DNA of 45,935 nt from Thermoplasmata archaeon (GTDB lineage: Archaea; Thermoplasmatota; Thermoplasmata; GCA-020350865): the NCBI GenBank assembly GCA_020348445.1, contig CP070751.1:951416-997350 (forward strand), written 5' to 3'. Below, piece by piece: positions 23,434 through 45,801 of the stretch. The notes below the pieces were generated by a model that saw only the letters and a list, made by a program, of their open reading frames with translations, was not told where the DNA came from and ran no database searches. Within the stretch, counting starts at the first letter, position 1; the number at the start of each line of letters is the position of its first letter. The position numbers and the translations under genes were made by a program.

Positions 23434-23580
23434 CTAAACCAATTAATATATAACCATTTCATATAACAATGTTTGTATACTCTTTTCATTTGTAATAATC
23501 AAAAAAGGTGTCATCCTCCTAATCCCGTTTCTAAAGGTCATTTTATCCTCCTGACTTCCATTTTTATAGAGATAGGAAGT

Positions 23581-23693
23581 AAGATGGGGGCTAGGAGTGT
23601 GGGGAATTTGGTGGTGGATCGAGAAAACCAGGGGAGTCGGGAGGATGTTTTGGGGGTGGGAAAGGGGGGAGGAGGAGGGGATGCGGCGTCCCT
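23581..23693 (+). repeat. G-rich dispersed repeat, copy A
   Basis: Core GGGGCTAGGAGTGTGGGGAATTTGGTG-n-GAAAACCAGGGGAGTCGGGAGGATG-n-GGAAAGGGGGGAGGAGG-n-GGGGATGCGG. Confidence 0.92.
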
Positions 23694-23732
23694 TTACAAT
23701 GGAACTTCCCAGGTGCACTCGGATTTGGTATG
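23694..23732 (-). pseudogene. Orphan 3' tip of a WEVPL-module gene (HTKSECTWEVPL*)
   Basis: 23694-23728 differs from 20956-20990 at 1 base, and its first 27 nt are identical to 40801-40827. The upstream reading does not continue the module. Confidence 0.8.
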
Positions 23733-23891
23733 CCAACTCTGGGAGGTGGGGGCGGTTTATGTAGGCCCAAAAAGGGGATAACCTTCAACTAGTTTCTCTT
23801 CAAGGTATGTATCCCGATACCATCACCTTTGCCTCGTTTCATTTTCCCCCTACTTTCTTTAACCCTCTCGGAGTTCAATTTATTCATCTTC

Positions 23892-24209
23892 TTATAAATA
23901 ATCTTCCCTAGGTGGAGAAAAAAAGGTTACCTCCTTCGAGTCTTCCAGCGCATTTATACTATGTTCTGTTCCTCCAGGTATTGAATAACTATCTCCTGCC
24001 TGGAGGATTTCGTTATACTCGTCGAACTTCATCTGTATCTTTCCAGAAATCACATATCCGCTTTGTTCATGCGGATGGCTGTGAAAAGACACATGATCGC
24101 CCGCTTTGTAGTTCATTTTTGTGACCATCGATTTCTCGCCTACACTAAGCACATCGAATGAAATCCCTAAGAATCTCCCTTTTTTAGCATCTTCCTTTTT
24201 TACTATCAT
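23892..24209 (-). CDS. Cupin domain protein
   Basis: FHSHPHEQSGYVISG and YSIPGGTEHS cupin metal motifs. Confidence 0.92.
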   Translation of the reverse strand: MIVKKEDAKKGRFLGISFDVLSVGEKSMVTKMNYKAGDHVSFHSHPHEQSGYVISGKIQMKFDEYNEILQAGDSYSIPGGTEHSINALEDSKEVTFFSPPREDYL

Positions 24210-24260
24210 TTTAAACCTCCTTAATGTTCATTGTTTCTTAACCCATATAATTGAATAAAT

Positions 24261-24599
24261 CTACTTTGATTTGTATCTGTCCTTTTGATTAAACAATGTT
24301 AAATCCTTGTAACCCTTTTTTATTTTTGCACTGTGCTTTACACCTTTGGGGATAAAGTAAGTATCTCCTTTTGAATAATTATTCTTCACACCATTAATAT
24401 TCAATTCGAGTTCTCCATCTAATATGACACCCCATTGTGCCTCATGAGAATGCACAGGAATCTCAATATCATTTTCAAAGCTCATAAAGAGAATTTGCCG
24501 ATTTCCGCCTTGAAAAAGGTGTGCTCGAAGTCCCTCAATAGGTATATCTGCTTCGGGTAAGCTTGTAATTATTTCTGGAAAGAAATTTTCTTTTGACAT
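24261..24599 (-). CDS. Cupin domain protein
   Basis: VHSHEAQWGVILDG and YFIPKGVKHS motifs. Confidence 0.92.
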   Translation of the reverse strand: MSKENFFPEIITSLPEADIPIEGLRAHLFQGGNRQILFMSFENDIEIPVHSHEAQWGVILDGELELNINGVKNNYSKGDTYFIPKGVKHSAKIKKGYKDLTLFNQKDRYKSK

Positions 24600-24601
24600 T
24601 T

Positions 24602-25057
24602 CTATTCCTCCTTTTTGTTTTCTTCATTTGAGAACAGCTTGAGCTTCTCGATAAAATCCTCTCGCACTGGATAGAAGATATCTAGCATTATGAAGGACTT
24701 ATCACCAATGCAGGTGTCACCATGCGGAACATTCCCTGGAATACGGTAGAAATCCCCCTTTTGAACAATTCGTTCCTCGTCCCCAATGCGCAGTTTCGCT
24801 TTGCCAGAGTATACAAATCCAACTTGTTCATGTGGATGAGAGTGCAATGGCACGGTATGACCCGGTAATGTGTCATTGAGTACCATCATCATCCTCTCAC
24901 CATGCAACCCAGTAAGGATCGTTGTTTCCAATCCTATCATCTGAATGAATCTGGGGGCATCCGCAGGGACTATGAAATATGGTACTTCCTTTCGCTTTGC
25001 AACTTTCTGCTTCCAAGTAGGTCTGTCCTTTTTGCACAAATATGTCGATGACATCAT
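24602..25057 (-). CDS. Cupin domain protein
   Basis: LHSHPHEQVGFVYSG and YRIPGNVPHG motifs; exact start uncertain. Confidence 0.88.
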   Translation of the reverse strand: MMSSTYLCKKDRPTWKQKVAKRKEVPYFIVPADAPRFIQMIGLETTILTGLHGERMMMVLNDTLPGHTVPLHSHPHEQVGFVYSGKAKLRIGDEERIVQKGDFYRIPGNVPHGDTCIGDKSFIMLDIFYPVREDFIEKLKLFSNEENKKEE

Positions 25058-25204
25058 TCAAAAGATATAATGCACCAAGAGATTATGTTAATTCTACCGC
25101 CCCACGGAGGCTCTTGAATGCAGGCAAATAGTAATATCGCCAAAGTGCTGGCCCAGTAGCAAACCGCCCCTCGGTGGGAAAATCATTATATATAATCCCT
25201 CAGA

Positions 25205-25921
25205 TTGAGTTTCATGCATTTCATAGATACCCGAATTCTTGTGCAACATTTGTGTCCTTTTTGTGACTTCTCCAAAGTCTTCCCAGAAGCAGAGATTTCC
25301 CTTTGGTGTAATCGGTCCAATGAGGTTCTACAGATTACCGCTTCCGACCCATCACATCTCATGGAGATCGTGCAAGCCGCACATGAATACCTTGGTGCAC
25401 ATGAGATATTCAGCGATGACCAATCTGCCTTAACGATGATCAAAGATTGTACTTGTTCAGAGACGGGTTCCGTCGCTGCAATTGCTGATGAATATGGTTG
25501 CTGGATCGTTCCACCTGTGACATATCGAGGTGGCTGGGAGACTCACCGTGTAATCTCATCCGACAATGATTCCATGCGCAAACTCATTACAGAGATCAAG
25601 AAAACTGGAAAGGTCAAGATACTGTCTAAACGTTCTCGAGTTCAGCTCGACGTGATACGGGACATTGGGGTGGTACCCGTACATTTCTTTGAAGGTCTGA
25701 CAGACCGCCAGATTCACGCCCTTGTTGTCGCATACGAAAACGGCCTTTTTGATATCCCTGCTCGAAATAAAATGGATCATGTTGCACTGAAGGAAGAGAT
25801 TTCCCGCTCCACCTTTGGAGAGCATTTACGGAAGGCACAGCTTCAGCTAATGAAGAACTCGTATCCTCTTCTTAAGCTCAAGGACGTCCGCAAGTCTTCG
25901 AAACGTAAGCCTCACGCCTAA
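25205..25921 (+). CDS. Bacterio-opsin activator-like regulator (HTH_10)
   Basis: C-terminal LTDRQIHALVVAYENGLFDIPAR...ISRSTFGEHLRKAQ is an HTH_10 pattern. TTATATATAA at 25186-25195 fits ATG 25214 as an alternative start. Confidence 0.88.
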   Translation: MSFMHFIDTRILVQHLCPFCDFSKVFPEAEISLWCNRSNEVLQITASDPSHLMEIVQAAHEYLGAHEIFSDDQSALTMIKDCTCSETGSVAAIADEYGCWIVPPVTYRGGWETHRVISSDNDSMRKLITEIKKTGKVKILSKRSRVQLDVIRDIGVVPVHFFEGLTDRQIHALVVAYENGLFDIPARNKMDHVALKEEISRSTFGEHLRKAQLQLMKNSYPLLKLKDVRKSSKRKPHA

Positions 25922-25964
25922 GCGATTTGTGCATAGTTCTTGTCTTGTTCGAGATCCAATAGTG

Positions 25965-26020
25965 TGTGGGGTTTTTGGGAGCCGCCACTCGGACTTGGCA
26001 TACCGCTTGTGAGAGGTGAA
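25965..26020. repeat. GGCATGCC-family imperfect palindrome
   Basis: TTGGGAGCCGCCACTCGGACTTGGCATACCGCTTGTGAGAGGTGAAGG. Left part aligns with 20916-20955; right part aligns with GTGAGAGTTGTGAAGG at about 40519-40534. Confidence 0.6.
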
Positions 26021-26273
26021 GGGTTTTGGGGATTTGATATCCTTACTCTTTATTCTACATAACTGTCTTTTTATACTCTAGTTAGTTCCAAATGGATTTA
26101 ATTTTATCTATTACCTCAGGGTACCGGGAAGGCTCTAAAATTTCGTGAATTTTTTTTATGATATGATGTAAAATATATCTTAACCGAAACGTTTAAAAGC
26201 TTTTAGAGAAGCGAGCCAATCTTTATTTATAAACTTTTTTACATAGTATTTTCCATATTTGAAAAACATGTAG

Positions 26274-27959: not shown

Positions 27960-27969
27960 TAGTTGGATT

Positions 27970-28057
27970 AATGACCCCCGATTTCCTGATCCTTCCTCGC
28001 GTAATCAGGGCTATCTGATTAGAAAGTTTTTCCTCTATAAGGGAGTTGGGGGTCATT
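27970..28057 (+). other. Intergenic stem-loop (17-bp outer stem with G-U wobbles)
   Basis: AATGACCCCCGATTTCC pairs with GGGAGTTGGGGGTCATT; inner CCTGAT/ATCAGG stem. Starts 10 nt after the stop at 27959. Confidence 0.6.
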
Positions 28058-28328
28058 GTTTTATATTAATTTAATAATGACAGAAGTAAAATATTATCTT
28101 AATTTATGATTATTAATTACTTGTATTGAAAATATCACCGAGGATTTTAGTTATTCGAAATAGAATAAATAAGGACGAAATTGGAATATGATTGCATCAA
28201 AAGCTTTAAATACTTTTTGATGAACGTGCCAAAATTTATTTATATGTATTTTTTATAATTGTTATATATCACTCATATTTATTTATCATGACAATTAATA
28301 AATTGGATGATTAGGGATGCGATAGAAA

Positions 28329-30227: not shown

Positions 30228-30285
30228 TGAAAATTCTGAATTCCAGTAATTCTTGATGGGCTCAACTTTTGGATTACAAAGCTCA

Positions 30286-30389
30286 GGATATCCCCAAATT
30301 CCATGCCCTCGCACACCCTTCTCTCACTTAGGTGTTCTTTGCATTCCCCTTTCCTTCATCGAGGTCTAATAATATGGGTGGTATTAGAT
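30286..30389 (+). repeat. Pyrimidine-rich flank element Y, copy 1
   Basis: Aligns over about 105 bp with 45551-45654 (GGATATCC...CACCCTTCTCTC.CTTAGGTGTTCTTTGC.TTCCCCTTTCCT...TAGAT). Confidence 0.8.
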
Positions 30390-30406
30390 TTCCTTTAACA
30401 AGACTC

Positions 30407-30518
30407 AAGATAGGGGGTAGGAGTGTGGGGAATTTGGTGGGATGTTAGAAAACCAGGGGAGTAGGGAGGATGTTTCGAGGATGGGAAAGGGGGGAGGAGA
30501 AGGAGATGGGGGATGCGG
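30407..30518 (+). repeat. G-rich dispersed repeat, copy B
   Basis: Same core as copy A. Confidence 0.92.
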
Positions 30519-30600
30519 GAGAAGCAGCAAGGGGTAAAATACTTACTTAATTATTCATCATTTACTTCGTATAACCTATTATTTGCTTTTTGTTGTTTAA

Positions 30601-30987
30601 TTATTTCACATATTTTCTGACCCAGATAAGAAACAATTTTGCAGATCTAAGAAGATACTCTGCATCTTTTTTTGAGATCGGTGTACCAAGGTATCCAACG
30701 TATGCTCTTTTATCCATAGCTTCCTTGAATCTACTCCTCTGGGATCCATCATTAATTATCTTAACCACATCAACATGCATCTTTATTGCCTCTCTGTGAT
30801 CCTTTGATGCCCGTCTTTCGAGATGATATATTGTAAGGGCGTCATTGGCATTGATCATGGATTGAATAGCTGAAAAGCCAGCTGCATTGAATCTCTTTTC
30901 ATTTAGATTCTGGCTTGCAGAAGCCAGAAATTCCTCAGCCTGATTCAGGTATTGGAACGCTTCCTTTTTCCTTACTTCTTTAACCAT
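30601..30987 (-). CDS. HEPN domain toxin (HEPN-MNT pair)
   Basis: YLNQAEEFL...A.F.AIQSMINANDAL fold pattern and R-x4-H (RASKDH). Overlaps the stop of the MNT gene. Confidence 0.88.
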   Translation of the reverse strand: MVKEVRKKEAFQYLNQAEEFLASASQNLNEKRFNAAGFSAIQSMINANDALTIYHLERRASKDHREAIKMHVDVVKIINDGSQRSRFKEAMDKRAYVGYLGTPISKKDAEYLLRSAKLFLIWVRKYVK

Positions 30988-31559
30988 GTCTTATCACCAT
31001 ATAGGATTATACCTTCGTTCATTATTCTAAAGATGAAATCATCCAGATCCTTAATCCTTTTTTTAGTTTCCTTTTTGGATAGGAACACAGGGGAAATCAC
31101 AATATCATATTTTTCAAGGAAATCCATGATATGTTTCTTGATTTTTTGCTGCACAGTCGAATCTGTGTAAATGAAAAGAAGATCAATATCCCCGGCTTCA
31201 ATCACTTCCTCTCTTGCTACAGAACCAAACAGAATGATATTTTCTATACCCTTTTTTTCCACTAAATCTGCAAATTCAATGGTTTTTTGCTTGAATGCGG
31301 AAGATTCGGATTTAAAAAGGGCCCTGATATCAGTGAACAGAATATGGATCTGGTTTACCTTGTACGCTATGGATCGCCCTATCTTTTGGGCCACTACTAT
31401 TCGGCTATCCACAAGACTCTGCATTGCAGGGTGCACTGTCCCGTATGACATCCCAGTGTCTTTCACAATATCTTCCATTGAATAACTTCTTTTCGGATTT
31501 CTTAACAAACTTCGAAGAATCCTGATCTTTGACTTGGAGCCGAGAATCTTTTCAAGCAT
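30972..31559 (-). CDS. Minimal nucleotidyltransferase (MNT) antitoxin with N-terminal winged HTH
   Basis: LFGSVAREEVIEAGDIDLL (GS-x-DxD motif) and N-terminal HTH (SMEDIVKDTGMSYGTVHPAM). Start moved from 31616 to ATG 31559 to fit the TATA and operator. Confidence 0.88.
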   Translation of the reverse strand: MLEKILGSKSKIRILRSLLRNPKRSYSMEDIVKDTGMSYGTVHPAMQSLVDSRIVVAQKIGRSIAYKVNQIHILFTDIRALFKSESSAFKQKTIEFADLVEKKGIENIILFGSVAREEVIEAGDIDLLFIYTDSTVQQKIKKHIMDFLEKYDIVISPVFLSKKETKKRIKDLDDFIFRIMNEGIILYGDKTWLKK

Positions 31560-31603
31560 AGTACTGATAAAGCTTTCTTGTAGTATATATTCTTTTCGAT
31601 ATT

Positions 31604-31619
31604 TCGATGTATACATCGA
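31604..31619. promoter_or_regulatory. Perfect 16-bp palindrome, candidate operator of the MNT-HEPN operon
   Basis: TCGATGTATACATCGA, 45 bp upstream of ATG 31559, flanked by extra TCGAT half-sites. Confidence 0.6.
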
Positions 31620-31668
31620 TTTCTCGATATTATTTCTCTTTAATATAGATAAAGTTATGCGATCTGGG

Positions 31669-31705
31669 TATATTAATTCGGGTCTGGGGGGAAGATGAAA
31701 GTATT
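31669..31705 (+). repeat. ~37-bp direct repeat, left of the GH16/M23 gene
   Basis: TATATTAATTCGGGTCTGGGGGGAAGATGAAAGTATT versus 34646-34682 TATATTACTCACGGTCCTGGGGGTGGATGAAAGTATT. Confidence 0.6.
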
Positions 31706-31907
31706 GACTCTCTCTACTCTGATTTTTATTATTGATAACCGTTTAAAAACTTATATAATCGAATTTCTGGATATTATATATTACTGTAAAGGGCGTTATT
31801 CAGAAGAGAATCATGGTAGCTTCCTTTATAATGTACTGTCCAACCATAGGAAGTGCTCCTGATAGCATCATTCTGTTTTTGCGTCTTTTGCATCTGGGGT
31901 ATGTCTG

Positions 31908-34493: not shown

Positions 34494-34645
34494 TAAGATT
34501 ACAATCCCCGGGGTGGTGGAAAAGGATGTTTTTTAAGAAGGATAATTCCCCCTCCCACACTTTATTTTACATATATTTTGACCCTATTATTTTCGATCTT
34601 TCGAAAAGAACTGGTATCTTAATGGACGAGATTAGGTTATTTATC

Positions 34646-34682
34646 TATATTACTCACGGTCCTGGGGGTGGATGAAAGTATT
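34646..34682 (+). repeat. ~37-bp direct repeat, right of the GH16/M23 gene
   Basis: Partner of 31669-31705. Confidence 0.6.
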
Positions 34683-34830
34683 TGAATTGGGAATCCTATT
34701 TCCAGCTGTCACCACTCGGTTTTGGGAGTCCTTCTCGAGTTCAACCATTTGAATTACGGCGGTAGGGCTGGTGGCGAGTGAGGCGGTAGACAAAGAAAAA
34801 CCTCAGAAGGGCCCTCTTGACTTATTGTGA

Positions 34831-34960
34831 GATGGAGAGGAGAGGGATGTGGTGGGGGTGATAGAAACACCAGAGGGGAGACGGTGGGGGTGTTGGGTGT
34901 TAGAGGGAGTGGGGTGGATGTTTTGGGGGTAGGAAAGGGGGGAGGAGGGGATTGGATGGG
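34831..34960 (+). repeat. G-rich dispersed repeat, degenerate copy C
   Basis: Retains GGATGTTTTGGGGGTAGGAAAGGGGGGAGGAGGGGAT and GAAACACCAG; the left half is rearranged. Confidence 0.7.
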
Positions 34961-35090
34961 TGGGTTTGGTATATTTTGAGATCGAGGGTGATGAGGGGGG
35001 TATATAGAAGACTGAGAGAATTAACAATTTAAACAAATAGGTTTCGGCTTGATGGATTTTACTAGGATTAAAGGGAAAGTTATTTAAATG

Positions 35091-35113
35091 ATAATTACCA
35101 TAATGGTAATTAT
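35091..35113. promoter_or_regulatory. Inverted repeat operator of the AbiE-like pair
   Basis: ATAATTACCA-TAA-TGGTAATTAT lies between a TTATTTAAA TATA-like box and ATG 35112. Confidence 0.65.
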
Positions 35114-35735
35114 GAATAAATATACAAAAATGTATGGCTGGTTATATGAAGCCTTTGGAATTCGGGAATTCACAATAGATGAATTCAAGGCGACTTTTCC
35201 CAGTCCTCAGCATGCAAAGATTATTTTTGATTTGATTCGATCTGATTTCATCAAGCGGGTAGCTAGGGGCAAATATAAGGTCACACCACCGAAAGAATTC
35301 GTACATCAGATTGTTATGGATAGCTTGAAACAAGAACATATTTTAATGGATGCGAAAAGAAGATATGCATACTGTGCAAACGATGCAGTGGGTATATGGA
35401 CCGATGGCTATTATTGGACTGGATTCACAAGGGGATACAAGCCTATTCACATAAAGATCTTTAGAAAGGACTTAAGATTTTGGAAAGAATTCTTCATGAA
35501 GAAAGATGCCGAGTTTGCATTGGAAAACGAGAATAGAACTTTATTCGGAATAACTTATATCTTACATCCAGTAAGGGATTTGAAAATAGAATCGAAAGAT
35601 GGGATTTTCGTGATTCCGTTAAAAGAGGTAATCGATTTCTGCATTGCAAATGAATTGTCATTTCGACCTGCATTGGAATATTTGGATGAGAGATATAGCT
35701 TGAACTTGTTTCAAAGTTACGAGCATGTACATTAA
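35112..35735 (+). CDS. Putative type IV (AbiEi-like) antitoxin with N-terminal wHTH
   Basis: FTIDEFKA...LIRSDFIKRVARGKY wHTH wing pattern; directly upstream of a nucleotidyltransferase. ORF track start is 35088; 35112 is preferred. Confidence 0.65.
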   Translation: MNKYTKMYGWLYEAFGIREFTIDEFKATFPSPQHAKIIFDLIRSDFIKRVARGKYKVTPPKEFVHQIVMDSLKQEHILMDAKRRYAYCANDAVGIWTDGYYWTGFTRGYKPIHIKIFRKDLRFWKEFFMKKDAEFALENENRTLFGITYILHPVRDLKIESKDGIFVIPLKEVIDFCIANELSFRPALEYLDERYSLNLFQSYEHVH

Positions 35736-35744
35736 GGTGAGAAT

Positions 35745-36455
35745 TTGAAAGAGAGAATCTTTACAAGGGAAAGAACATGTTTTGATTTTCTGAGAAGTAT
35801 TCCATCCAAAAGAAAGTTCGTTGTTATAGGAGGTTTTGCTGTTTCTGCCTACGAATTTCCGAGATTATCTGTAGATCTTGATATAGTAATTCCAGAAGAG
35901 GAATTGAAATTCTTCATGAACCTTATTAAAAACCAGGATTTTGTTTTTAAAAAGGAAAAATCGGATTTTGATGATATTTATGGTGGGAAATATGAAAAAT
36001 ACATAAAAGAAGAGAAGCTACCCGTATCCGTGGATTTATTGATAAACTCGGTTATGGCCAGACAAACAAATTATTCATATTCATTTCAGTATTTGTTTAA
36101 ACATTCAAAAGCCCGGGAGATTCGTGGCTGGCATCCCGAAGCTAAGGTTACAGTTCGAGTCCCAAAGAAAGAGATGTTGATTGCTCTTAAGGTGAACTCC
36201 ATGAGAATGGCAGACAAACGGGATATTATTATGCTCTGTTATGAGAAACCGAATGCTGATATGATTATTAGGCATTTAAAGGACTGCCCAAGGGATAGTA
36301 TTATGGACAATCTGAATGAGCTTTTGGAATTGGTTGGGTCCCAGGATCATGATAACATGATCAAGGGAGTGTTTTCACTTTCCGATGATGTTTTGAAGCG
36401 TGCCGTAATAAGGTGTGAGAAGGTCATGGGAGAGGTTCTTGAGATGATTGAATAG
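35745..36455 (+). CDS. AbiEii-like nucleotidyltransferase (type IV TA toxin-like)
   Basis: FVVIGGFAVSAYEFPRLSVDLDIVI motif, KKEMLIALKV...ADKRDI; AGGTGA SD before the TTG start. Confidence 0.8.
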   Translation: MKERIFTRERTCFDFLRSIPSKRKFVVIGGFAVSAYEFPRLSVDLDIVIPEEELKFFMNLIKNQDFVFKKEKSDFDDIYGGKYEKYIKEEKLPVSVDLLINSVMARQTNYSYSFQYLFKHSKAREIRGWHPEAKVTVRVPKKEMLIALKVNSMRMADKRDIIMLCYEKPNADMIIRHLKDCPRDSIMDNLNELLELVGSQDHDNMIKGVFSLSDDVLKRAVIRCEKVMGEVLEMIE

Positions 36456-36462
36456 GGATCAT

Positions 36463-36576
36463 CGACGCAAAATGGGGCTAGGAGTGTGGGGAATTTGGTG
36501 GGAGGTGAGAAGACCAGGGGAGTCGGGAGGATGGTTCGGGATCAGGAAAGGGGGGAGGAGGAGGGGATTAGGGGGG
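36463..36576 (+). repeat. G-rich dispersed repeat, copy D
   Basis: Same core as copy A. Confidence 0.92.
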
Positions 36577-36675
36577 TTTTCAAGCTTGCTATGAGATCGA
36601 GGGGATTGGGGATTCGTGGGTGGGAGGAGATTGTACTCTAAAAGGGATGAGGATTATAAAAGAGTTAATTGTTAG

Positions 36676-37074
36676 TTAAACATTTCTTGGATCTTCCGCT
36701 AAAAGATCAGGTATCATTTCAAATATATGATCTGTGGACAATATCTTTTCACCATGGAGCTTTGCGGTTGCGATATGAAGTGAATCAAAAGTTCCAAGGA
36801 AATCGAATTGTTTCATCATTTTATTAGATTCCTTTAAGATTCTTTCATCTAACGGGAGTAATTTTATCTTCAAATTCTTTAGTATATCTTCAACCCGTAA
36901 GGCAACATCAATATTCTCATCTCTTATCAAAACCAATCTGGATTCCACAACTGAAAGAACTGAGGTGCATAATTTCTTTTCCTTTTTTATCCTTTTCTCC
37001 ACTGACTTCTTTAACCAGTCTTTTTCTTTGACTAAAGCCAAAATGCAGTCTGTATCAAGATACACGCTTACCAC
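36676..37074 (-). CDS. vapC: PIN domain ribonuclease toxin
   Basis: VYLDTDCILAL, SVLSVVE, FDSLHIATA, ILSTD: the conserved acidic PIN residues. Confidence 0.92.
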   Translation of the reverse strand: MVSVYLDTDCILALVKEKDWLKKSVEKRIKKEKKLCTSVLSVVESRLVLIRDENIDVALRVEDILKNLKIKLLPLDERILKESNKMMKQFDFLGTFDSLHIATAKLHGEKILSTDHIFEMIPDLLAEDPRNV

Positions 37075-37282
37075 GTCTTAGTCGGCGTTTGGTTTCCTCG
37101 TAACCGTATTCCTCAGCCCTGAAATGTACCCTGTTGTAGAAAAGAACCGCTAATCTAGCACCATATCTCAAAGCCTCTGATCTTGAACTGAAAACTTTTT
37201 CTTCTATCAATTGGTCGATCTCATTTGCCAGGCCAATTGGAAGAGAAACTGCGGTAGATACACGATCTTTTGTTCGGGACAT
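37055..37282 (-). CDS. vapB: Ribbon-helix-helix antitoxin
   Basis: VSTAVSLPIGLANEIDQLIEEKVFSSRSEALR RHH pattern; overlaps the start of the PIN gene. Confidence 0.85.
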   Translation of the reverse strand: MSRTKDRVSTAVSLPIGLANEIDQLIEEKVFSSRSEALRYGARLAVLFYNRVHFRAEEYGYEETKRRLRRGKRVS

Positions 37283-37302
37283 ATTTATACATATGTATAA
37301 AT
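37283..37302. promoter_or_regulatory. Perfect 20-bp palindromic operator of vapBC
   Basis: ATTTATACATATGTATAAAT immediately upstream of the antitoxin ATG. Confidence 0.75.
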
Positions 37303-37370
37303 CATTATTTTATCTTTTCGGTACTTTTTATGATCTTTTTTTTTACTAATTATTCTTTGTCCCACTATCT

Positions 37371-37406
37371 CCCAATGTTCCCATCGTTCCCAATGTTCCC
37401 GATGTT
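37371..37406 (+). repeat. Tandem 9-mer x4
   Basis: CCCAATGTT CCCATCGTT CCCAATGTT CCCGATGTT. Confidence 0.8.
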
Positions 37407-37427
37407 GATATAGGGGATTTTGTGGAT

Positions 37428-37543
37428 CATCTCACGAATTTGGCATGCCATTCATCTCACGGATTTGGCGGTAAATTTAGGGCTCATCTCACGAATATGG
37501 CCATTGAATTCTTGATTCTATATCACGAATTTGGTATGCCATT
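37428..37543. repeat. Cluster of 4 GGCATGCC-family units
   Basis: ATCTCACGAATTTGGCATGCCATT-like units at 37428, 37453, 37485 and 37520; inverted CGTGAGAT at 37546 and 37681. Confidence 0.8.
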
Positions 37544-37696
37544 TGCGTGAGATAAGAGAGTGAGGCATATTGATTGATTTCAGAGCACTGGCTACCCTCA
37601 ATTTATACCTCTCATAACTTGCATTTTTAGCGGATCAGACAGGGTATGTGCGCTGGAAATGAGGAAAAATTTACCAGATTCGTGAGATGGGCTGGG

Positions 37697-37810
37697 TTTT
37701 GGGCCCAAAAAGGGGCTAGGAGTGTGGGGAATTTGGTGGGATGTTAGAAAACCAGGGGAGTCGGGAGGATGTTTTGGGGTGAGGAAAGGGGGGAGGAGGA
37801 GGAGGGGATG
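37697..37810 (+). repeat. G-rich dispersed repeat, copy E
   Basis: Same core, starting with the palindrome TTTTGGGCCCAAAA. Confidence 0.92.
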
Positions 37811-37952
37811 TTTTTTTTCAGGATATCCTCCGTACCTTCCGCTTCTCCGCTCTGCGAGGTCTCTCTTTGTTCATCCTCAAGGTTTTCAAATTTCTTCGAA
37901 ATCCGAAAACGAGCCACGCCCCCTCCTCAGAGTGGGTAAAATAAAAAATTGT

Positions 37953-39131
37953 TTAACGTATTTTGCCTAGAGCCGAATTTAAACCTGCCATATCAACAAA
38001 GGAAACCTTACAGCCATTAACCTTCTTGGTTCCTTTTTTACCTTCGTAAAATACAATGTATGCTTTCTTTGGTTTGTAATTATTGATAAATGAATGTAAA
38101 CTCTTGTCAATCGAATATGACCCTTCGGAGACCTTAACTTCTATGGGAATTACATCTTTTTTATGCTCTAAAACGAAATCAACTTCCACTTTTGATTTTG
38201 TCCTCCAATATTTTGGTATATAACCTGCTTTTATTACTTCGGAAAATACATAGTTTTCAAATACTTTTCCATCAGGTTTTACTGGGAAATCATCTATAAT
38301 TATATTTCTTAAACCGCAATCTAAGAAATATATCTTTGGTTGCTTTGTGAGTTCTTTGTTCTTATTTGTGAAATATGGTTTTACCCTCACAATAAAATAG
38401 CTCTTTTCCATTGCATCTAGATACTTCTTAAGTGTGGGGAAGGTAATGCCTAAAGTCTTTGTTGTGTTATCATAAGATATCAGATTGGCCGTGTTAATTG
38501 CCAAATATCTTGAGAGCTGTTCAAGAGCATTCATGTCGGAAATTGAAAATGTTCTTGCTACATCCTTGAGAATCATTGTCTCGTAAAGATCTCTCAGAAT
38601 AATTTTTTTCATGTTTGGATCCTTTGTCAGCACAACTTTCGGGTAACCACCATAGGTCATATGTTCCCAAACCATTCTTTTTGAAATCGTGATTGTTGTA
38701 GCTTTTTGTTTTTTTGCTTTTATGAATTCTGAATGAGAGAAAGGATACAATCTGACAATAGATACACGTCCAACCAAATAAAATAATATTTCCTTGGACA
38801 TCAATATTTCAGAGGAAGAGGTTATCCATAGTTTTCGTCCGGTGTCCACAAGATATTTCAATTTCGATCCCGAGTCCCTGCAATGCTGTACCTCGTCCAG
38901 AACAGAAAGTTCATGTCCTTCAATATATTGCATTTCAAATTTTTTGACATCCTCGTCAAACAATGCCCTTGCATCAGGATCATCGAACAACACGTACGAA
39001 GAATCGTATTTTTTCATTTGTTCCTTGAGAAATGTGGTTTTGCCTGCCTGTCTTGCTCCAACCACAGCTATCATATTATAGCTTTCGGAAACTGAACTGA
39101 AATGTTCCTTAAGGTCTCTTTTTACATACAT
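37953..39131 (-). CDS. AAA_14 + DUF4143 ATP-binding protein
   Basis: Walker A VGARQAGKTT, LDEVQ, GGYP, KIYFLDCGL, FENYV, YWRT...EVDFV...IPIEVK. Start at 39131 (MYVKR) preferred over 39152. Confidence 0.92.
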   Translation of the reverse strand: MYVKRDLKEHFSSVSESYNMIAVVGARQAGKTTFLKEQMKKYDSSYVLFDDPDARALFDEDVKKFEMQYIEGHELSVLDEVQHCRDSGSKLKYLVDTGRKLWITSSSEILMSKEILFYLVGRVSIVRLYPFSHSEFIKAKKQKATTITISKRMVWEHMTYGGYPKVVLTKDPNMKKIILRDLYETMILKDVARTFSISDMNALEQLSRYLAINTANLISYDNTTKTLGITFPTLKKYLDAMEKSYFIVRVKPYFTNKNKELTKQPKIYFLDCGLRNIIIDDFPVKPDGKVFENYVFSEVIKAGYIPKYWRTKSKVEVDFVLEHKKDVIPIEVKVSEGSYSIDKSLHSFINNYKPKKAYIVFYEGKKGTKKVNGCKVSFVDMAGLNSALGKIR

Positions 39132-39244
39132 CAACTTTGATATACAATCCATTGTATTTAAACCTTACTAAAATTAATGTGCACTTTAACTTTAGTATTA
39201 CCAAAATTAAAGTCAATAATAGTTTTGGTAATGATGAAATAGTA

Positions 39245-39360
39245 AAGATAGGGCTAGGAGTGTGGGGAATTTGGTGGGATGGGAGAGAACCAGGGGAGTC
39301 GGGAGGATGTTTCGGGCCAGGAAAGGGGGAGGAAGGATGGGATGAGGGGATGCGGTATCT
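39245..39360 (+). repeat. G-rich dispersed repeat, copy F
   Basis: Same core as copy A. Confidence 0.92.
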
Positions 39361-39402
39361 CTTTCTTCCGTTCCTGCACTGGGCTACACCCCTTGCTTAG
39401 AG

Positions 39403-39526
39403 CTGATCGATTACAATACTTCCTGGGGGAGAAATCCCCCTGAACCGCAGGAAATCGCAGATTTCCGAGGGGCAGTGCTCATCTTTGATGAGCATGAGTC
39501 CCCCCTTTTCTTTTTCATTTCTTGAG
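39403..39526 (+). ncRNA. Candidate structured RNA or DNA element S, copy 1
   Basis: Three hairpins: GGGGGA-GAAA-TCCCCC, GGAAATC-GCA-GATTTCC, GGGG..TGCTCATC-TTT-GATGAGCA..CCCC, then a T tract. Paralog at 44045-44168. Confidence 0.55.
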
Positions 39527-39664
39527 TGGCTGTCCAAATAAGATTGTTACTATACAGAGGGAGTGCGGAGGGGTAAAGATATGGTTGTCCTTACCTTCCA
39601 TCCCTTCTCTAGGCCATGCCCTTTGCTCGGGGCGGGGAAAAATTTGTAAGCTCTATATTTAGAA

Positions 39665-39952
39665 TTAGATATCGGGTAAAAGTCTCGCACCGTGAACGAT
39701 GGCGACTATCTCGATGGCCTCCTCCTTAATTCTGTAAACTATCCGATAATTTTGAAATATTCTTTCCCTTAAATCATCCCGCTGATATTCCGGAACCACT
39801 CGCCCAGCTTTAGGAAAACCCGGTATCTTTTCGATCAAAGTTACGATTCGTTGTGCAAAAAGCCGCGCGTAATGCTCCGAATCAAGAGCAATGTAGTTGC
39901 ATATTTCCTCAAGATCCGCAGCTGCTCTGGGAGACCAGATCAGCTTAACCAT
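39665..39952 (-). CDS. parE: RelE/ParE family toxin
   Basis: LIWSPRAAADLEEICNYIALDS...FPKAGRVVPE...RERIFQNYRIVYRI...IVAIVHGAR. Confidence 0.92.
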   Translation of the reverse strand: MVKLIWSPRAAADLEEICNYIALDSEHYARLFAQRIVTLIEKIPGFPKAGRVVPEYQRDDLRERIFQNYRIVYRIKEEAIEIVAIVHGARLLPDI

Positions 39953-40125
39953 TTTTTCAATCGCTCCTTGGCCTCCTCATGGGAAATGCCCTTCCCTTCA
40001 TCTAGTTCCTTCAGACCCTTGTCCACCTTTTGTCTAAAATAAAGTTCGGCCATAATATCAGCTATACTGGCATCGTCCGGCATCTGTTGAATCATGGCTA
40101 TTACATTTTCTTTTAGATTTTGCAT
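39940..40125 (-). CDS. Small antitoxin of the ParE-family toxin
   Basis: 61 aa MQNLKENVIAMIQQMPDD...GKGISHEEAKERLKKWLS; GGAGG SD before ATG 40125; overlaps the toxin start. Confidence 0.85.
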   Translation of the reverse strand: MQNLKENVIAMIQQMPDDASIADIMAELYFRQKVDKGLKELDEGKGISHEEAKERLKKWLS

Positions 40126-40260
40126 GATCAAGGCCTCCATATGGGAATTTTTAGTATTTGAGGTACTATTATTCAATTTATATTTAAGTGTTGCTCTATT
40201 TTTATGTTTACCCGAAAGATCATCGTTCAATCTGGTCATAATAAGCACCATTATTACACG

Positions 40261-40289
40261 TGTTACATACCATTGTAACATTTGTAACA
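40261..40289. promoter_or_regulatory. TGTTACA/TGTAACA inverted and direct half-sites
   Basis: TGTTACA 40261, TGTAACA 40274, TGTAACA 40283; about 135 bp upstream of the antitoxin start. Confidence 0.4.
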
Positions 40290-40370
40290 TTAGGCTTTTG
40301 GGGTATATTAATCCTAATTTGGGGGGAGAATGTAAGTATTTGGATCATGGGTATGGTTTTTGGCATCCAT

Positions 40371-40527
40371 CACTCGTATTTGGCATACCATATGAGGGAG
40401 TTAACGCTCGTAATTGGCATGCCATCTAACGCTCGCAGTTGGCACCTAATTCAGGGTTTACCTCTCGTATTTGGCATGCCATCTGCGGGAGTTAGCGCTC
40501 GTAATTGGCATGCCAACTGTGAGAGTT
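40371..40527. repeat. Cluster of 5 GGCATGCC-family imperfect palindromes (REP/BIME-like)
   Basis: Units at about 40371, 40403, 40428, 40462 and 40494. Consensus AAC(G/T)CTCGTA(A/T)TTGGC-AT-GCCA..TG.G.GAGTT. Confidence 0.85.
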
Positions 40528-40670
40528 GTGAAGGTGAGTTGTGATTGGTGTTTTTTGAGGACTGGCTGTGGTTTTAAACGAGGCTGGAAAATGGGATTTT
40601 TTGGGAAGGCAGATGGGGTAGGTGGGCTGAGAATTTATGGATTTTTGCCATCTGCGAGAGGTGGCTTGGG

Positions 40671-40800
40671 TTTTGGGGCCCAAAATGGGGGCTAGGAGTA
40701 TGGGGAATTTGGTGGGATGTTAGAAAACCAGGGGAGTCGGGAGGATGTTTCGGGGGTAGGAAAGGGGGGGAGGAGAATGGGTGTGGGGATGCGGCAATCC
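40671..40800 (+). repeat. G-rich dispersed repeat, copy G
   Basis: Same core; ends at the base before the stop codon of the WEVPL gene at 40801. Confidence 0.92.
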
Positions 40801-43800
40801 TTACAATGGAACTTCCCAGGTGCACTCTTCTTTTGCGTGGATATAGTATCCTTTTCCAGGTTCAAAATAATCTGAAGGACCTAGTTTTATCCATTTTTGT
40901 TTTGCGGCATTGTATGTGAGGATTGCATCCACATGAGTGCCGAAGATAAGGTTGTTCAATCCTTCTGTTCTATTGTGGTTTGTTAGGGAGGGGTAACCAA
41001 CCATGTTCCAGCCTTTGTAAATTTGGATAGTCTGGATAACTGATGGTTGGGTGCCATTATAGAGGAAAATTGTGTCTCCTGGATGGGTGATGTGAATCCA
41101 GAAGCTCTGGGTTTCGTTTATCTCAAATAGGTCGTTTCCGTAAGGTTTGCCAACCCTATTGTGTTTCCAGGGATCGTTTGGATCTGTTGGATCATACCAT
41201 TGGACTGCATCATAATAGCCATCGATCATCTCAAGGACTTTTATCAAGTTTTGATTAATTTGGATAAAGGGGATTGAGATCAGGTTCCATCCTTGTTTTA
41301 AGAGGGTGTAATTTTCTAAGGATTGGTAGATGTAGGGTTCCATGAGAGGATAATTATCTACTGAATCTGAATCAATCGAGTAATTTGTATCTCCAATACC
41401 ATCACTGCCGGGTATATCCTGATTAGGACCTTTAAATTTGTCAACACCGACATAATTCGACCAGTAATTTCCTCCTAAAGGATACCCGTTGTCCCATTGG
41501 TTAGCGTTGTTTGTATAATCATAGGCTTGTACTGTATTATTTATAAAATTATTGTGATAAATAAGGTTGTTCGATGGTATTGACATCCCGATCCCAAAGA
41601 AGTTGTTTGTAACATTATTGACGGAGATTGTATTGTCAAATGAATCATCGAGCGAGATACCATAATAATTATTTGAAACAATATTTTCTTTGAAATTATT
41701 TTCATTGGATTCTTCATCGATAAAGATTCCATTATTGTTGAAGAAGGCGGTATTATTACTAATATTATTTCCTTTGGACCAACCTAGACATATTCCGTAA
41801 TCATTATTTGAGACATTATTTTGGATGATGGTATTATTCGTAGAAAATCCAAGTTCAATTCCACAAGAACTATAATTGCAATTCTGCTGCTCAATCTTTA
41901 CATTTGAGCAGTTGGCAAGTATGATTTCCCCCGCTCCAAACGGCACTATTCCTCCTGTTTGGTTCTTCAAGTAGTAAACTGGCTTGCTGTTTACAGTATT
42001 TGAAGTATCGATATTGTGCGTGTTCCAATGCTCAACGGTAGGGCCCCAAATAAATATCCCATCATTTGTCATTGTATTGTTTGAGACGATGATCTCCTTT
42101 GAATATGCAAGATGGACACCCATTCCATCATTTGAAGAGATATTATTGCTTTTTATAGTGTTGTTTGACGAAATAAGAAAGATGCCATCCTCTTTATTCG
42201 AATATACATTGTTTTTTGAAATATTGTTGTTATTTGATGCAAAACCAAGATAAATACCTTTTTCAGTATTTGAATATACGTTGTTGCCCAATATGGTGTT
42301 ATTCGTAGATGTAATAACCTCGATACCTACAATATCATTCAAATAAACATTATTGTTCATTATTTTATTATTTGATGATAAGTAAAGATATAGACCATCT
42401 GCTTCGTTCAAATAAGCATTGTTATTAGTGATTGAATTGTTTGATGAAGAGTAAAGATCGATGCCAATCCAGTTATCTGTAACATTATTGTTTGTTATGT
42501 TGTTATTTGATGAGGAGCTTAAAGAAATGGCCTTAATATTGGACGAGAAATTATTGTTATTTATACGGTTGTATGATGATCCCTCAAGCATAACAGCCCA
42601 TGAGCGTGTTACAAAATTCGATACATTATTGTTTGTTATAGAATTATTGGTTGAAGAAAAAAGGGTGATGCTATCTGGATTTTGTGAAAAATAGTTATTA
42701 TTAATAATATTATTTGATGATGAATCCAGATAAATACCATCTGCATCATTTGAAATGAAATCATTTTCATCTATGCTGTTATTCAAAGATTCAAAAAGAA
42801 ATACACCGTAGTCATTGTCAGTAACATTGTTACCAGTAATATCGTTATCATGTGCAGTGTCCAGATAAATACCAGGATTATTGTTCGATACATCGTTTGA
42901 GGATATATTGTTCTTGTGGGAATTGTCAAGGTATATCCCGTTTTCAGTACTAAAAGAGACCAGATTGTCCCTAACATTGTTGAAATCAGATAGATCCAGA
43001 TGTATACCATGATAACAATGAGAAAGGTTATTGCCAGTGACTTGATTTTCATTGGAATAGTAAAGATAGACACCGCGATCCCAGATGGATGAAATGTTGT
43101 TGTGTTTGACCGTGTTATTTCTCGAATATGATACACAGATTCCGTCACCGTTATTCCATCCGATGTTTTTGAATACCGTATTATCATTTGAGTACAACAA
43201 GTAAAATCCTATGTCGCTATTTGTAGCATTGTTCTCAGTAATCGTATTATTGTTCGAGTTTCTGATGGAAAAACCAAAGTCCCAATTATCCACGGCATTG
43301 TTGCTAAAAAGAGTGCTTCTATTTGAGTAATATAATAGGAAACCGCGAGAATTATCTGTTGCAATGTTGTCTGTGATTCTGCATTGTTCCACTGAATCAA
43401 GATCTATACCTGCGTCGTACCAGTTTACTCCGCTGTGTGTAACAGTGAATCCACTGATGTTCACCCAGTTAGAGGATACGTATATCACATCATTGGCCCA
43501 TCCACCATCCACAATCGTTGTGTTCTTGTTCTCACCCGTCAAGGTCAGGATTTTGTTCACAATAACATTCTCTATGTACGTCCCGTTGTAGACAAAGATC
43601 GTATCCCCATCTATAGCCGCATTTATCGCATCCTGAATACTCGTGAAATCCTCGGGGGGATTCCCGGGTCCGGAACCAGGTACATCATCAACATACCAAG
43701 TAGTAGGGGCTTCTACAACTTGTGCAATCTCGATAATAATGACAATTAAGCCCAACATCATAGCCAAACTTACCCAAATTGCGACTATCTTATTGTTCAT
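40801..43800 (-). CDS. Secreted right-handed beta-helix (NosD/CASH-like) protein with C-terminal WEVPL module
   Basis: TWYVDDVPGSGPGNPPEDFTSIQDAINAA start, many GI.L..S.NN.I..N repeats, WDNGYPLGGNYWS, ends ECTWEVPL. Confidence 0.92.
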   Translation of the reverse strand: MNNKIVAIWVSLAMMLGLIVIIIEIAQVVEAPTTWYVDDVPGSGPGNPPEDFTSIQDAINAAIDGDTIFVYNGTYIENVIVNKILTLTGENKNTTIVDGGWANDVIYVSSNWVNISGFTVTHSGVNWYDAGIDLDSVEQCRITDNIATDNSRGFLLYYSNRSTLFSNNAVDNWDFGFSIRNSNNNTITENNATNSDIGFYLLYSNDNTVFKNIGWNNGDGICVSYSRNNTVKHNNISSIWDRGVYLYYSNENQVTGNNLSHCYHGIHLDLSDFNNVRDNLVSFSTENGIYLDNSHKNNISSNDVSNNNPGIYLDTAHDNDITGNNVTDNDYGVFLFESLNNSIDENDFISNDADGIYLDSSSNNIINNNYFSQNPDSITLFSSTNNSITNNNVSNFVTRSWAVMLEGSSYNRINNNNFSSNIKAISLSSSSNNNITNNNVTDNWIGIDLYSSSNNSITNNNAYLNEADGLYLYLSSNNKIMNNNVYLNDIVGIEVITSTNNTILGNNVYSNTEKGIYLGFASNNNNISKNNVYSNKEDGIFLISSNNTIKSNNISSNDGMGVHLAYSKEIIVSNNTMTNDGIFIWGPTVEHWNTHNIDTSNTVNSKPVYYLKNQTGGIVPFGAGEIILANCSNVKIEQQNCNYSSCGIELGFSTNNTIIQNNVSNNDYGICLGWSKGNNISNNTAFFNNNGIFIDEESNENNFKENIVSNNYYGISLDDSFDNTISVNNVTNNFFGIGMSIPSNNLIYHNNFINNTVQAYDYTNNANQWDNGYPLGGNYWSNYVGVDKFKGPNQDIPGSDGIGDTNYSIDSDSVDNYPLMEPYIYQSLENYTLLKQGWNLISIPFIQINQNLIKVLEMIDGYYDAVQWYDPTDPNDPWKHNRVGKPYGNDLFEINETQSFWIHITHPGDTIFLYNGTQPSVIQTIQIYKGWNMVGYPSLTNHNRTEGLNNLIFGTHVDAILTYNAAKQKWIKLGPSDYFEPGKGYYIHAKEECTWEVPL

Positions 43801-43880
43801 CAGAAAAAGTTATCAATTTCACGGGATAAATACCTTCCGCTCTATCCTCGAAAGTGGTTGGTAGGGATTCGCTGATTGGT

Positions 43881-44004
43881 TCGACCCAAAATGGGGCTAA
43901 GAGTGTGGGGAATTTGGTGGAGGGTGAGAAAACCAGGGGAGTCGGGAGGATGGTTCGAGGGTAGGAAAGGGGGAGGAGGAGGGGTGTGGGGATGCGGCAT
44001 CCCT
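43881..44004 (+). repeat. G-rich dispersed repeat, copy H
   Basis: Same core, with terminal hairpins CCCA-AAA-TGGG and GGGATG-CGG-CATCCC. Confidence 0.92.
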
Positions 44005-44044
44005 ATCTTACGCTCCTGGTCTGGACGACGCCCCCAGCTCGGAC

Positions 44045-44168
44045 CTGATTGATTCCAATACTTCCTGGGGGAGAAATCCCCCTGAGCCGCAGGAAATCAT
44101 TGATTTCCGAGGGGTAATGCTCATGTTTAATGAGCATGTATCCCCCTTTTTCTTTTTCATTTCTAAGT
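44045..44168 (+). ncRNA. Candidate structured RNA or DNA element S, copy 2
   Basis: Same three hairpins as 39403-39526, with differences mostly in loops; ends on the ATPase stop codon. Confidence 0.55.
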
Positions 44169-45449
44169 GAGATCCAACAACCATTTCCATACAGGAATGA
44201 ACTCGATCTTCTTTTTATCAATGATACTTTCATCTTCATAATCCCAAGTGATTATCTTCAGATTCTTGCATTTTAATAATTCAGCTCCTTTTAACAGACT
44301 TTTTATTTCCCTTCTTTCTACTTCGTCGGAACCTGATGCCTTTGTAACCTGGATAAGAGAGTCAATTTTCTTTCCTTTTTGGAGTACAAAATCGATTTCC
44401 CTGCTCTGATAATCTCTCCAATAATATATCTTTAGTTTCCTATCAATTGATCTTCTTCTCATCAAGTCTAGATATACAATATTTTCCATCAATCGTCCAA
44501 AGTTCTCACTTACGGAATGCGATATAGTGTTTATTAGTCCACAATCTATTACATAAACCTTTTTAGGAGAATTCATCACTTCTTTAGGTTTTGATGAGTA
44601 CTTATCAACGAGCTGGACAAGATAGGCTTCGGAAAGATAGTCCCCATAATTCTTTGCCGTATGTACGCTTTTTATATCATGAGTATTTTTAAGCTTGTTA
44701 TAACTGATTAGATTCGAGAAATTCGAGATTATTGTAGTGGACATTTCTTTGAATGTTTTTACATATTTTAGATTATGTCTGAGAATGATATCTTTTGATA
44801 TTATCGAAGAATATAGAGATGATATATATGTGTTCATTATAGTGGGTTTCTTAACGACTTCCGGAAAGCCACCGATTTTAATATACTCCTCAAGATATCG
44901 TTTGAGCGCAGCTTTGCCTCTAGTAGTGGTCTTTGGAATTTTAACACCCTTCCAAACAAGAAATTCGCCAAACGAGAATGGCAGCATCTCGATTTGAACT
45001 GTTCTGCCTGTGAGATGAGTGGAAAGCTCCTGGCTGAGCAGGTTTGCGTTGCTACCTGTGATAAACAAATTTATTTTACTTCTTTGCAGTCTGTTTACAA
45101 AGAGCTCCCAACCGTAAATATTCTGCACCTCATCCAAAAGGAGTTCTTTGAAGTCACCATAATGCTGATAAAGGGCCTCCAGTATGTTATTCAGATCCTC
45201 TTTTTCTGCAAAGGCAAGCCTCTCATCATCGAAATTCACTGATGCATATCTTTTATTCTGTAGAAGAAGATGAGTAAAAACCGTTTTACCAGATCTTCTG
45301 ACACCTGTCGTGACCTTTACAAGGTCATTATTAACGTAATCTTTGTAGAAATCTAGCTGCTCTCTTTCGATTAGATTCTCGTGTTTGTAGAATCTATCTC
45401 TTTCCTCGGCCTGGTCCTCGATAACATCCCTTATTGCTGTTTTCTTCAT
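44163..45449 (-). CDS. AAA_14 + DUF4143 ATP-binding protein
   Basis: TGVRRSGKT, LLDEVQ, ITGSN, GGFPE, KVYVIDCGL, LMENIV, YYWRD...EIDFV, IQVT. Confidence 0.93.
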   Translation of the reverse strand: MKKTAIRDVIEDQAEERDRFYKHENLIEREQLDFYKDYVNNDLVKVTTGVRRSGKTVFTHLLLQNKRYASVNFDDERLAFAEKEDLNNILEALYQHYGDFKELLLDEVQNIYGWELFVNRLQRSKINLFITGSNANLLSQELSTHLTGRTVQIEMLPFSFGEFLVWKGVKIPKTTTRGKAALKRYLEEYIKIGGFPEVVKKPTIMNTYISSLYSSIISKDIILRHNLKYVKTFKEMSTTIISNFSNLISYNKLKNTHDIKSVHTAKNYGDYLSEAYLVQLVDKYSSKPKEVMNSPKKVYVIDCGLINTISHSVSENFGRLMENIVYLDLMRRRSIDRKLKIYYWRDYQSREIDFVLQKGKKIDSLIQVTKASGSDEVERREIKSLLKGAELLKCKNLKIITWDYEDESIIDKKKIEFIPVWKWLLDLT

Positions 45450-45461
45450 GTTAAATAGTAA

Positions 45462-45504
45462 TGCACACTTTATATATAAAGTTTGCAGTCATAGTGCACA
45501 CTTT
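45462..45504. promoter_or_regulatory. Near-perfect palindrome centred on a TATA box, plus an extra half-site
   Basis: TGCACACTTT-ATATAT-AAAGTTTGCA (45462-45487) and TGCACACTTT (45495-45504), 13 bp upstream of the ATG. Confidence 0.65.
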
Positions 45505-45550
45505 CAAACACCCTTCCGTATGTCCACTTTGGCTTTTTTTCTCAAACATT

Positions 45551-45654
45551 GGATATCCAGAAATCCCATGACCTCGTGCACCCTTCTCTCCCTTAGGTGT
45601 TCTTTGCGTTCCCCTTTCCTCATTCCTGGTCCTATAATGTGTGCGGTTTTAGAT
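45551..45654 (+). repeat. Pyrimidine-rich flank element Y, copy 2
   Basis: Partner of 30286-30389; again just left of a G-rich repeat. Confidence 0.8.
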
Positions 45655-45684
45655 CTACTATAAGGCGCTGCAAAATAGTAAACA

Positions 45685-45801
45685 TCGACCCAAGATGGGG
45701 GCTAGGAGTGTGGGGAATTTGGTGGGGGATTGGAAAACCAGGGGAGTCGGGAGGGTGGTTCGGGGTTGGGAAAGGGGGGAGGAGGGGATTAGGGGATGCG
45801 G
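45685..45801 (+). repeat. G-rich dispersed repeat, copy I
   Basis: Same core as copy A. Confidence 0.92.

Follow-up and report, generated by a model that had tools for sequence, protein, structure and literature searches.

The repeats of the sedentary chromosomal integron of Vibrio cholerae measure 123-126 bp, and attC sites also form integrase-less clusters, known as CALINs. REP and BIME elements of enterobacteria, and NIME and dRS3 elements of Neisseria, make intergenic mosaics of several short repeat types, each recombining on its own, and are concentrated in the vicinity of surface-protein and accessory genes. Integrons have also been described in Archaea (PMC9668308). The stretch of DNA considered here, 45,935 bp that make up one complete contig of a draft metagenome-assembled genome (MAG) of an uncultured Thermoplasmata archaeon from sediment, and that we call the window, carries a repeat of ~120 nt, the F1 core, which has to be compared with these systems. 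The core is a non-coding DNA element and no structured RNA or hairpin site. Together with other strongly G-skewed intergenic repeats it makes up a group, restricted to the genus, that occupies the junctions of self-contained accessory modules, namely toxin-antitoxin (TA) pairs, ATPases and surface beta-helix proteins. Tentatively, we take it for a selected, recombination-prone junction repeat, the uniform polarity of which would channel recombination into gain, loss and reordering of modules without inversion.

The MAG (G000) amounts to 5.16 Mb in ~350 contigs linked via runs of 100 N, the succession of contigs in the linked file being without positional meaning. It is 81.7% complete, with 3.8% contamination. 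Its order in GTDB comprises six genomes only. The nearest closed relative, of the same genus, is G001 (CP070739.1, with record label 'MAG: Methanomassiliicoccales archaeon bin396'); further relatives are designated G002, G003 and G004.

An earlier reading of the window, made from its letters (the sequence-only reading), had listed nine co-oriented copies, A to I, and none in the first 23.5 kb. Repeat finding, MAFFT alignment and nhmmer find all nine to be real: eight are well conserved, copy C is degenerate, and the G-rich strand is on + throughout. An F1 profile built from the window copies, with which nhmmer searched the whole of G000, has no match in window positions 1-23500, where just short right-end remnants (GGGGATGCAGAATCCC) occur at the stop of a WEVPL gene near 17240. 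Copies A (23577..23698) and B (30402..30518) both reach an E-value of 2e-24; A is followed by an orphan WEVPL tail of 12 codons (23694-23745), while the left-flank module of B (30286-30413) is common to copy I and G001. Copy C (34857..34957; E 7e-9) has a left half that is degenerate in the alignment. Copy D (36463..36582) begins 6-8 nt past the stop of an AbiEii-like gene, and copy E (37704..37816) carries a left palindrome, TTTTGGGCCCAAAA. The left edge of copy F (39243..39361) is the place where the homology of the preceding cassette to contig C70 of G002 (G002:C70) ends, at 39236. Copy G (40678..40800) abuts the stop codon of a 999-aa NosD/WEVPL gene; the flanks of copy H (43882..44003) are similar to the core-less 3' flank of a WEVPL gene at 17200-17256; and copy I (45686..45802) is 133 nt from the contig end, with a right-flank module that is also present on two short contigs. 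Twelve other copies, on seven shorter contigs, make 21 in G000. Hundreds of copies spread over core regions in both orientations, the pattern named in advance as telling against a cassette-bound element, are not observed there. Eight contig ends, the right end of the window included, fall at most ~600 nt from an F1 copy, and six of these at most ~260 nt; the repeat thus interrupts the assembly, and there are in truth more copies than were counted. Short-read assemblies break at almost every copy of these G-rich repeats, and MAGs of this lineage consequently have their accessory islands under-assembled.

The anatomy of the core is distinctive. Its G-rich strand comprises 43-53% G and 3-14% C. 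The consensus reads GGGGCTAGGAGTGTGGGGAATTTGGTGG, then a variable patch of 7-9 nt, AAACCAGGGGAGTCGGGAGGATGTTTCG, a second variable patch, AGGAAAGGGGGGAGGAG, and a G-rich tail, which varies in length and often terminates in GGGGATGCGG. Among 21 copies from two species, 48 of the 87 core columns are invariant; the ten hypervariable columns (at least six departures each) are gathered in two patches, and variation along the core has an index of dispersion of 4.3. Pairwise identity is ~70-90%. By global alignment no pair within G000 goes above about 90%, and the highest value, 94%, is reached across species, by copy A and the corresponding G001 copy at 117969; a local match, 96% over 103 nt, links copy A to the copy at 1919653. 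Copies that diverge this much and still keep invariant blocks are old, with specific blocks kept up by selection, which points to sequence-specific recognition and not to decaying junk. Recognition would most likely be the work of a trans-acting protein.

The second salient feature is polarity. The sequence-only reading had set the probability of agreement among nine copies by chance at about 0.004, and counting other contigs brings the co-orientation far beyond chance. All F1 copies agree on each multi-copy contig (9/9 in the window, 4/4 on a 9.8-kb contig, 3/3 on an 8.1-kb contig). The same is true of F2, a second G-rich family that a scan of G000 for G-rich, C-poor segments retrieved as 21 copies in two arrays (13/13 over 40 kb, 8/8 over 25 kb), and of F3, a third family found in G001 (3/3 and 3/3). 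Taking intergenic G-rich, C-poor segments of any family, the three long array contigs each show a single direction (9, 11 and 12 segments). Does this follow from the position of the genes? It had been proposed that intact copies lie 0-310 bp downstream of a minus-strand unit, and the distance from core to stop codon is indeed 0-303 nt for A, B, D, E, F, G and H, while copy C has a plus-strand gene as its right neighbour; over all F1 copies with a known right neighbour, 14 of 17 are just downstream (0-380 nt) of a minus-strand gene. Yet in the longer F2 array (2a), 17 genes are on the plus strand and 10 on the minus strand, and all 13 cores are co-oriented, mostly after plus-strand genes, that is in the sense opposite to that of F1, three cores being located between divergent genes. 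A place downstream of a gene is therefore not the cause of co-orientation, which is independent of gene direction and certainly uniform across each array. In the closed G001 genome four loci (118-123, 308, 2165-2168 and 2581 kb) have the G strand on + and one (175-178 kb) has it on -, with cdc6 genes at 2.00 and 2.99 Mb. A strict array-wide polarity that gene direction leaves unexplained calls for a mechanism.

F1 and F2, the latter with the consensus ...GCGCGCAAAAAGGGGCGTGTCGGTGGATTGGGAGGTCAGGGGAAACGGTGGAGG..., have elements in common. A spaced motif (AAAAWGGGGC, then GGTGG, then CAGGGGA) matches six F1 and five F2 copies, and its reversed control none; a left-flank module, AGATTCGTGAGRTGGG...TTTTGGG, is also common to both. 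Within the six-genome order F1 was found in G000 and G001 only. F2 is present in G000 and in G004 (3/3 co-oriented in the latter), F3 in G001 only, and a contig of G003 holds F2-like and F4 elements; these G-rich families of genus-mates occupy the same kind of module junction. Neither a BLAST search of 36 class-level relatives nor a pattern search of viral and metagenome collections returned copies. As far as these searches reach, the group appears to be restricted to the genus, and the F1 core matches no known repeat or RNA family. Regarding the source itself, we note that G000 has its 5.16 Mb despite only 82% completeness, when four genus-mates measure 2.3-3.7 Mb, and that F1 is confined to contigs of the first part of the length-sorted file and F2 to the second part. 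G000 may mix two related populations; near-identical alternative contigs were not found within the MAG. Exact-protein look-ups of cassette proteins matched only ~1-kb contigs, all from one run (SRR14739665).

Several identities for the core could be discarded. The sequence-only reading had stated that it is not attC and has no integrase, and this is borne out. Single-stranded DNA folds of eight copies, on both strands, gave minimum free energies of -0.5 to -9.7 kcal/mol and z-scores of -1.0 to +1.9 against shuffles; no hairpin is formed. Folding no better than shuffled sequence, and with no internal inverted repeat, the core cannot be an attC-type site. A structured RNA or small RNA gene was likewise rejected: Rfam has no match at the gathering threshold over the whole window, the consensus RNA fold is negligible (-4.7 kcal/mol for the plus strand, -0.6 for the minus strand), and the left flank shows no conserved promoter-like sequence. 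One-base indels between copies, which are not multiples of three, exclude a coding function. Internal iteron-like direct repeats were dropped, with a local self-alignment score of 18 for a shuffle mean of 17.7. Two small end hairpins had also been reported; those formed by CCCA...TGGG and by GGGATGCGGCATCCC are real, but exist in a subset of copies only.

The modules that the cores separate resemble each other from one array to the next: they are mostly TA pairs, AAA_14/DUF4143 ATPases and NosD beta-helix proteins. The partition of the region into single-module cassettes, as first proposed, is upheld by Pfam from C-D to H-I, but not for A-B and B-C, which contain several modules each. C-D (35088..36455, plus strand) is a pair of 215 and 236 aa, with a weak AbiEii match and an 80% identical copy on G003:C309. 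All others are on the minus strand: D-E (36676..37282), a PIN toxin with a 75-aa partner, 76% identical to a copy on G002:C70; E-F (37953..39152), an AAA_14+DUF4143 ATPase; F-G (39665..40290), a ParE toxin with a 116-aa partner; G-H (40801..43800), the 999-aa NosD/beta-helix protein with its WEVPL end; and H-I (44163..45449), again an AAA_14+DUF4143 ATPase. Interval A-B comprises three cupins, a helix-turn-helix regulator and PKD proteins. In B-C, an M23 peptidase goes with a HEPN and nucleotidyltransferase (NTase) pair located right of core B (30601..31616, minus strand). Other F1 contigs encode HicAB, Fic, DUF5678 with an aspartyl protease, and giant surface proteins. F2 arrays encode PIN_2, MazE-like, NYN, HEPN, HicAB, MaoC, HEPN/NTase, AAA_14 and five NosD proteins.

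The same modules are found in relatives, at 76-92% identity, dispersed and in another order: the E-F ATPase, the H-I ATPase and VapBC are in rotated order on G002:C70, ParDE is upstream of M23 in G001, and the MazE-like and MaoC modules are swapped on G003:C337. Orientation is preserved. None of the compared relatives shows a module turned round relative to its partners, and the direction of a cassette with respect to the local G strand is conserved in all five testable cases, even when the flanking G-rich family differs. In several cases homology stops at the left edge of a core, as seen at 39236 before F, at 36457 before D, and at F2 copies 5 and 7. Between copy A and the matching G001 copy, the core and the right flank are shared and the left flanks differ; left and right flank modules are reshuffled among F1 copies.

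How might these observations fit together? In the reading that we prefer, while granting that it may well prove wrong, the cores would be portable homology patches for gain, loss and reordering of cassettes, with either the host recombination machinery or an unlinked enzyme acting on them, and would themselves be the crossover points. Since an array has all its copies in one direction, the possible outcomes of recombination between them are deletion, duplication and transposition of modules, and never inversion. The proposal of an undescribed cassette-delimiting or recombination element stands in so far as the element is undescribed, co-oriented, and placed at the junctions of TA-rich arrays. 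Its role as a site of cutting and joining agrees with the several breakpoints at left edges of cores, but meets with objections. G002:C70 holds three cassettes of the window with no G-rich core in its assembled intergenic gaps, which contain other shared repeats instead; arrays and their reordering do not, then, require the core. Most ends of inter-species homology are the ends of a gene and its promoter, not cores. The sole branch found in the assembly graph of G000, built with 99-nt overlaps, breaks inside a Fic gene and not at a core: an intact Fic gene and a 5'-truncated Fic remnant, the latter behind an aspartyl-protease cassette, both lead into a common 3' contig (G000:C1:1876463-1878135, 1919573-1921000 and 1821195-1823235; L020, L021 and L019), this branch representing either two loci or two strain variants. 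Furthermore, identities of 80-90% over ~100 nt make the cores poor substrates for homologous recombination, and Pfam analysis of array and flank genes detected no recombinase in or beside any array.

Instead of serving its host, the repeat might be selfish: a non-autonomous mobile element (MITE-, REP- or PATE-like), moved in trans by an enzyme from another locus, which would spread locally into the intergenic DNA of accessory islands, with one-way insertion imposed by a strand-specific mechanism such as single-stranded DNA at the replication fork. We consider this rather unlikely, although it would account for several facts. Families differ by species (F1 in G000 and G001, F2 in G000 and G004, F3 in G001 only, none found on G002:C70). 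The G000 genome has five Y1 (IS200-type) transposase genes. Four of five G001 loci are co-oriented, and an origin at the cdc6 gene near 2.0 Mb would place all of them in a single replichore; the array at 175-178 kb, however, has the opposite direction. Similar junctions exist with and without a core: copy H has a core-less equivalent in the WEVPL 3' flank at 17200-17256, and F2 copy 7 has one in G003:C92, but both 'empty' sites differ in the adjacent sequence as well, and neither is a clean insertion. Neither terminal inverted repeats nor conserved subterminal hairpins are found at the core ends, the flanks aligned across 21 copies show no target duplications, and the sequence next to the five Y1 genes has nothing in common with the repeat. 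With no inverted ends and unrelated Y1 flanks, a MITE or an IS200 derivative was rejected as the identity of the core. Finally, no near-identical copies mark a recent burst, the closest pair being the one that spans two species.

Another class of explanation makes the core a cis-element of the host that would act, in a manner depending on its direction, on expression or chromosome structure: a 3' untranslated region or terminator-insulator between modules, a site to which a nucleoid or silencing protein binds as it coats accessory islands, or a barrier prone to forming G-quadruplexes or triplexes. The block-wise purifying selection fits such a role. So does the frequent location downstream of F1-associated genes, from which transcription, reading through the C-rich strand, would meet a T-run at the far end; and some copies carry a T-run, a palindrome and an A-run that would offer oligo-T to transcription coming from both sides. 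The 20 complete copies have 7-12 G-tracts each (the copy cut by a contig end has 5), and the core holds a homopurine run of ~24 nt. Yet F2 cores mostly follow genes for which the G-rich strand is the sense strand, and some stand between divergent promoters; the canonical quadruplex motif (four tracts of at least three G, with loops of 1-7 nt) is found in just 7 of 21 copies; and G002 conserves the E-F ATPase promoter in the absence of a core. On balance this explanation seems to us unlikely. Still harder to credit is an integron-like system of site-specific cassette capture, with the G-rich, non-palindromic, purine-skewed core as its recombination site and a recombinase from an unrecognised family or absent from the 82%-complete MAG, for, if the layout is that of a sedentary integron (~120-nt homogeneous species-specific repeats, single-module intervals, many TA cassettes, strict co-orientation) and if breakpoints recur at the left edge of cores that stay joined to their right flank, there is no hairpin and no integrase near the arrays (PF00589 matches in this incomplete MAG are two short fragments far from them, at G000 1864225 and 2412539), while G002 has a core-less array, one breakpoint is inside a gene and some intervals have several modules.

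The cores are not the only repeats at these junctions. A second type consists of palindromic units of ~25-45 nt built on GGCATGCC, tandem and inverted, at 37419..37560 and at 40373..40518, the latter between the start of the ParD-like gene and core G. Units of this GGCATGCC/GGTATACC kind (CGCTCGTATTTGGCATGCCATCTG...) are also seen right of F2 cores and at L036:4252-4394, and their variants are species-specific, for example the ACACCGGATTTCGTATA units of G002:C70. A promoter-like module of 65 nt with a TATA-like GGGTATATTAAT motif recurs at 31641-31705, 34618-34682 and 40276-40340 upstream of unrelated TA operons (MNT/HEPN, ParD-like gene), with an orphan copy near core C, and is also present in G001, G002 and G003. 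Directly right of cores F and H, a segment of 184 nt rich in short hairpins (39339-39522 and 43981-44164) is 84% identical between the two places. On L024 (G002:C70), a 3'-flank repeat, GGGCATTTTCCATACCTTC...CCACGCCCCCTGCTCGGGGCGGGG, with a GC-rich hairpin occupies 5932-6224, 7677-7909 and 9161-9262; it recurs after genes in G002, and remnants are visible in the window at about 37920-37945 and 39620-39650.

Two further observations concern the content of the arrays. The WEVPL C-terminal module, conserved over ~300-420 nt (window 13049-13470, 17255-17676, 20954-21375 and 40799-41220), is common to surface proteins that differ in their N-terminal domains: a PQQ propeller, an unassigned protein, GHL15/CBM and NosD. 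The second F2 array (2b) includes, between two G-rich cores, 13 co-oriented tRNA genes at L034:6736-9566 (G000:C1:4640736-4643566), for Glu, Cys, Val, Ala, Gly (two), Phe, Tyr, Asn, Asp, His, Met and Thr.

If it were true that the cores mediate cassette exchange, they would represent a second, independent route to integron-like arrays of defence and surface genes, in Archaea. On a conservative reading, the family still offers a clear example of an intergenic repeat that is long, non-palindromic, strand-asymmetric and under selection.

It remains to place F1 among the known systems. With MITEs and with the palindrome-associated elements of the IS200/IS605 type it shares small size, lack of coding capacity, multiple copies, lineage specificity and some variation in presence between similar junctions; it differs from them in the ends, flanks and hairpins discussed above, and in that its copies are old and evenly diverged, not burst-like. 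The intergenic mosaics of several short repeat types are reminiscent of REP/BIME and NIME/dRS3, and the GGCATGCC palindromic units are REP-like, whereas the G-rich core is non-palindromic, three to five times as long as a REP, and keeps a strict co-orientation across tens of kilobases; the core does not flank any RAYT-type gene. The analogy with the attC arrays of integrons fails at every mechanistic point. F1 has no imperfect dyad symmetry folding into a single-stranded hairpin, no RYYYAAC/GTTRRRY ends and no IntI; one strand is G-rich and C-poor, cassettes run in both directions with their own promoters, and a related genome has cassettes without the repeat. As for layout, the analogy holds. 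Integrons and CALINs are delineated by two or more co-oriented sites, with less than 4 kb from one to the next, that separate cassettes, and copies C to I follow one another at 1.2-3.2 kb, all nine window copies being co-oriented. Here as there, co-oriented repeats of ~120 nt, homogeneous within a species, delimit cassettes that mostly hold a single module, often a toxin-antitoxin pair, and that are shuffled between relatives.

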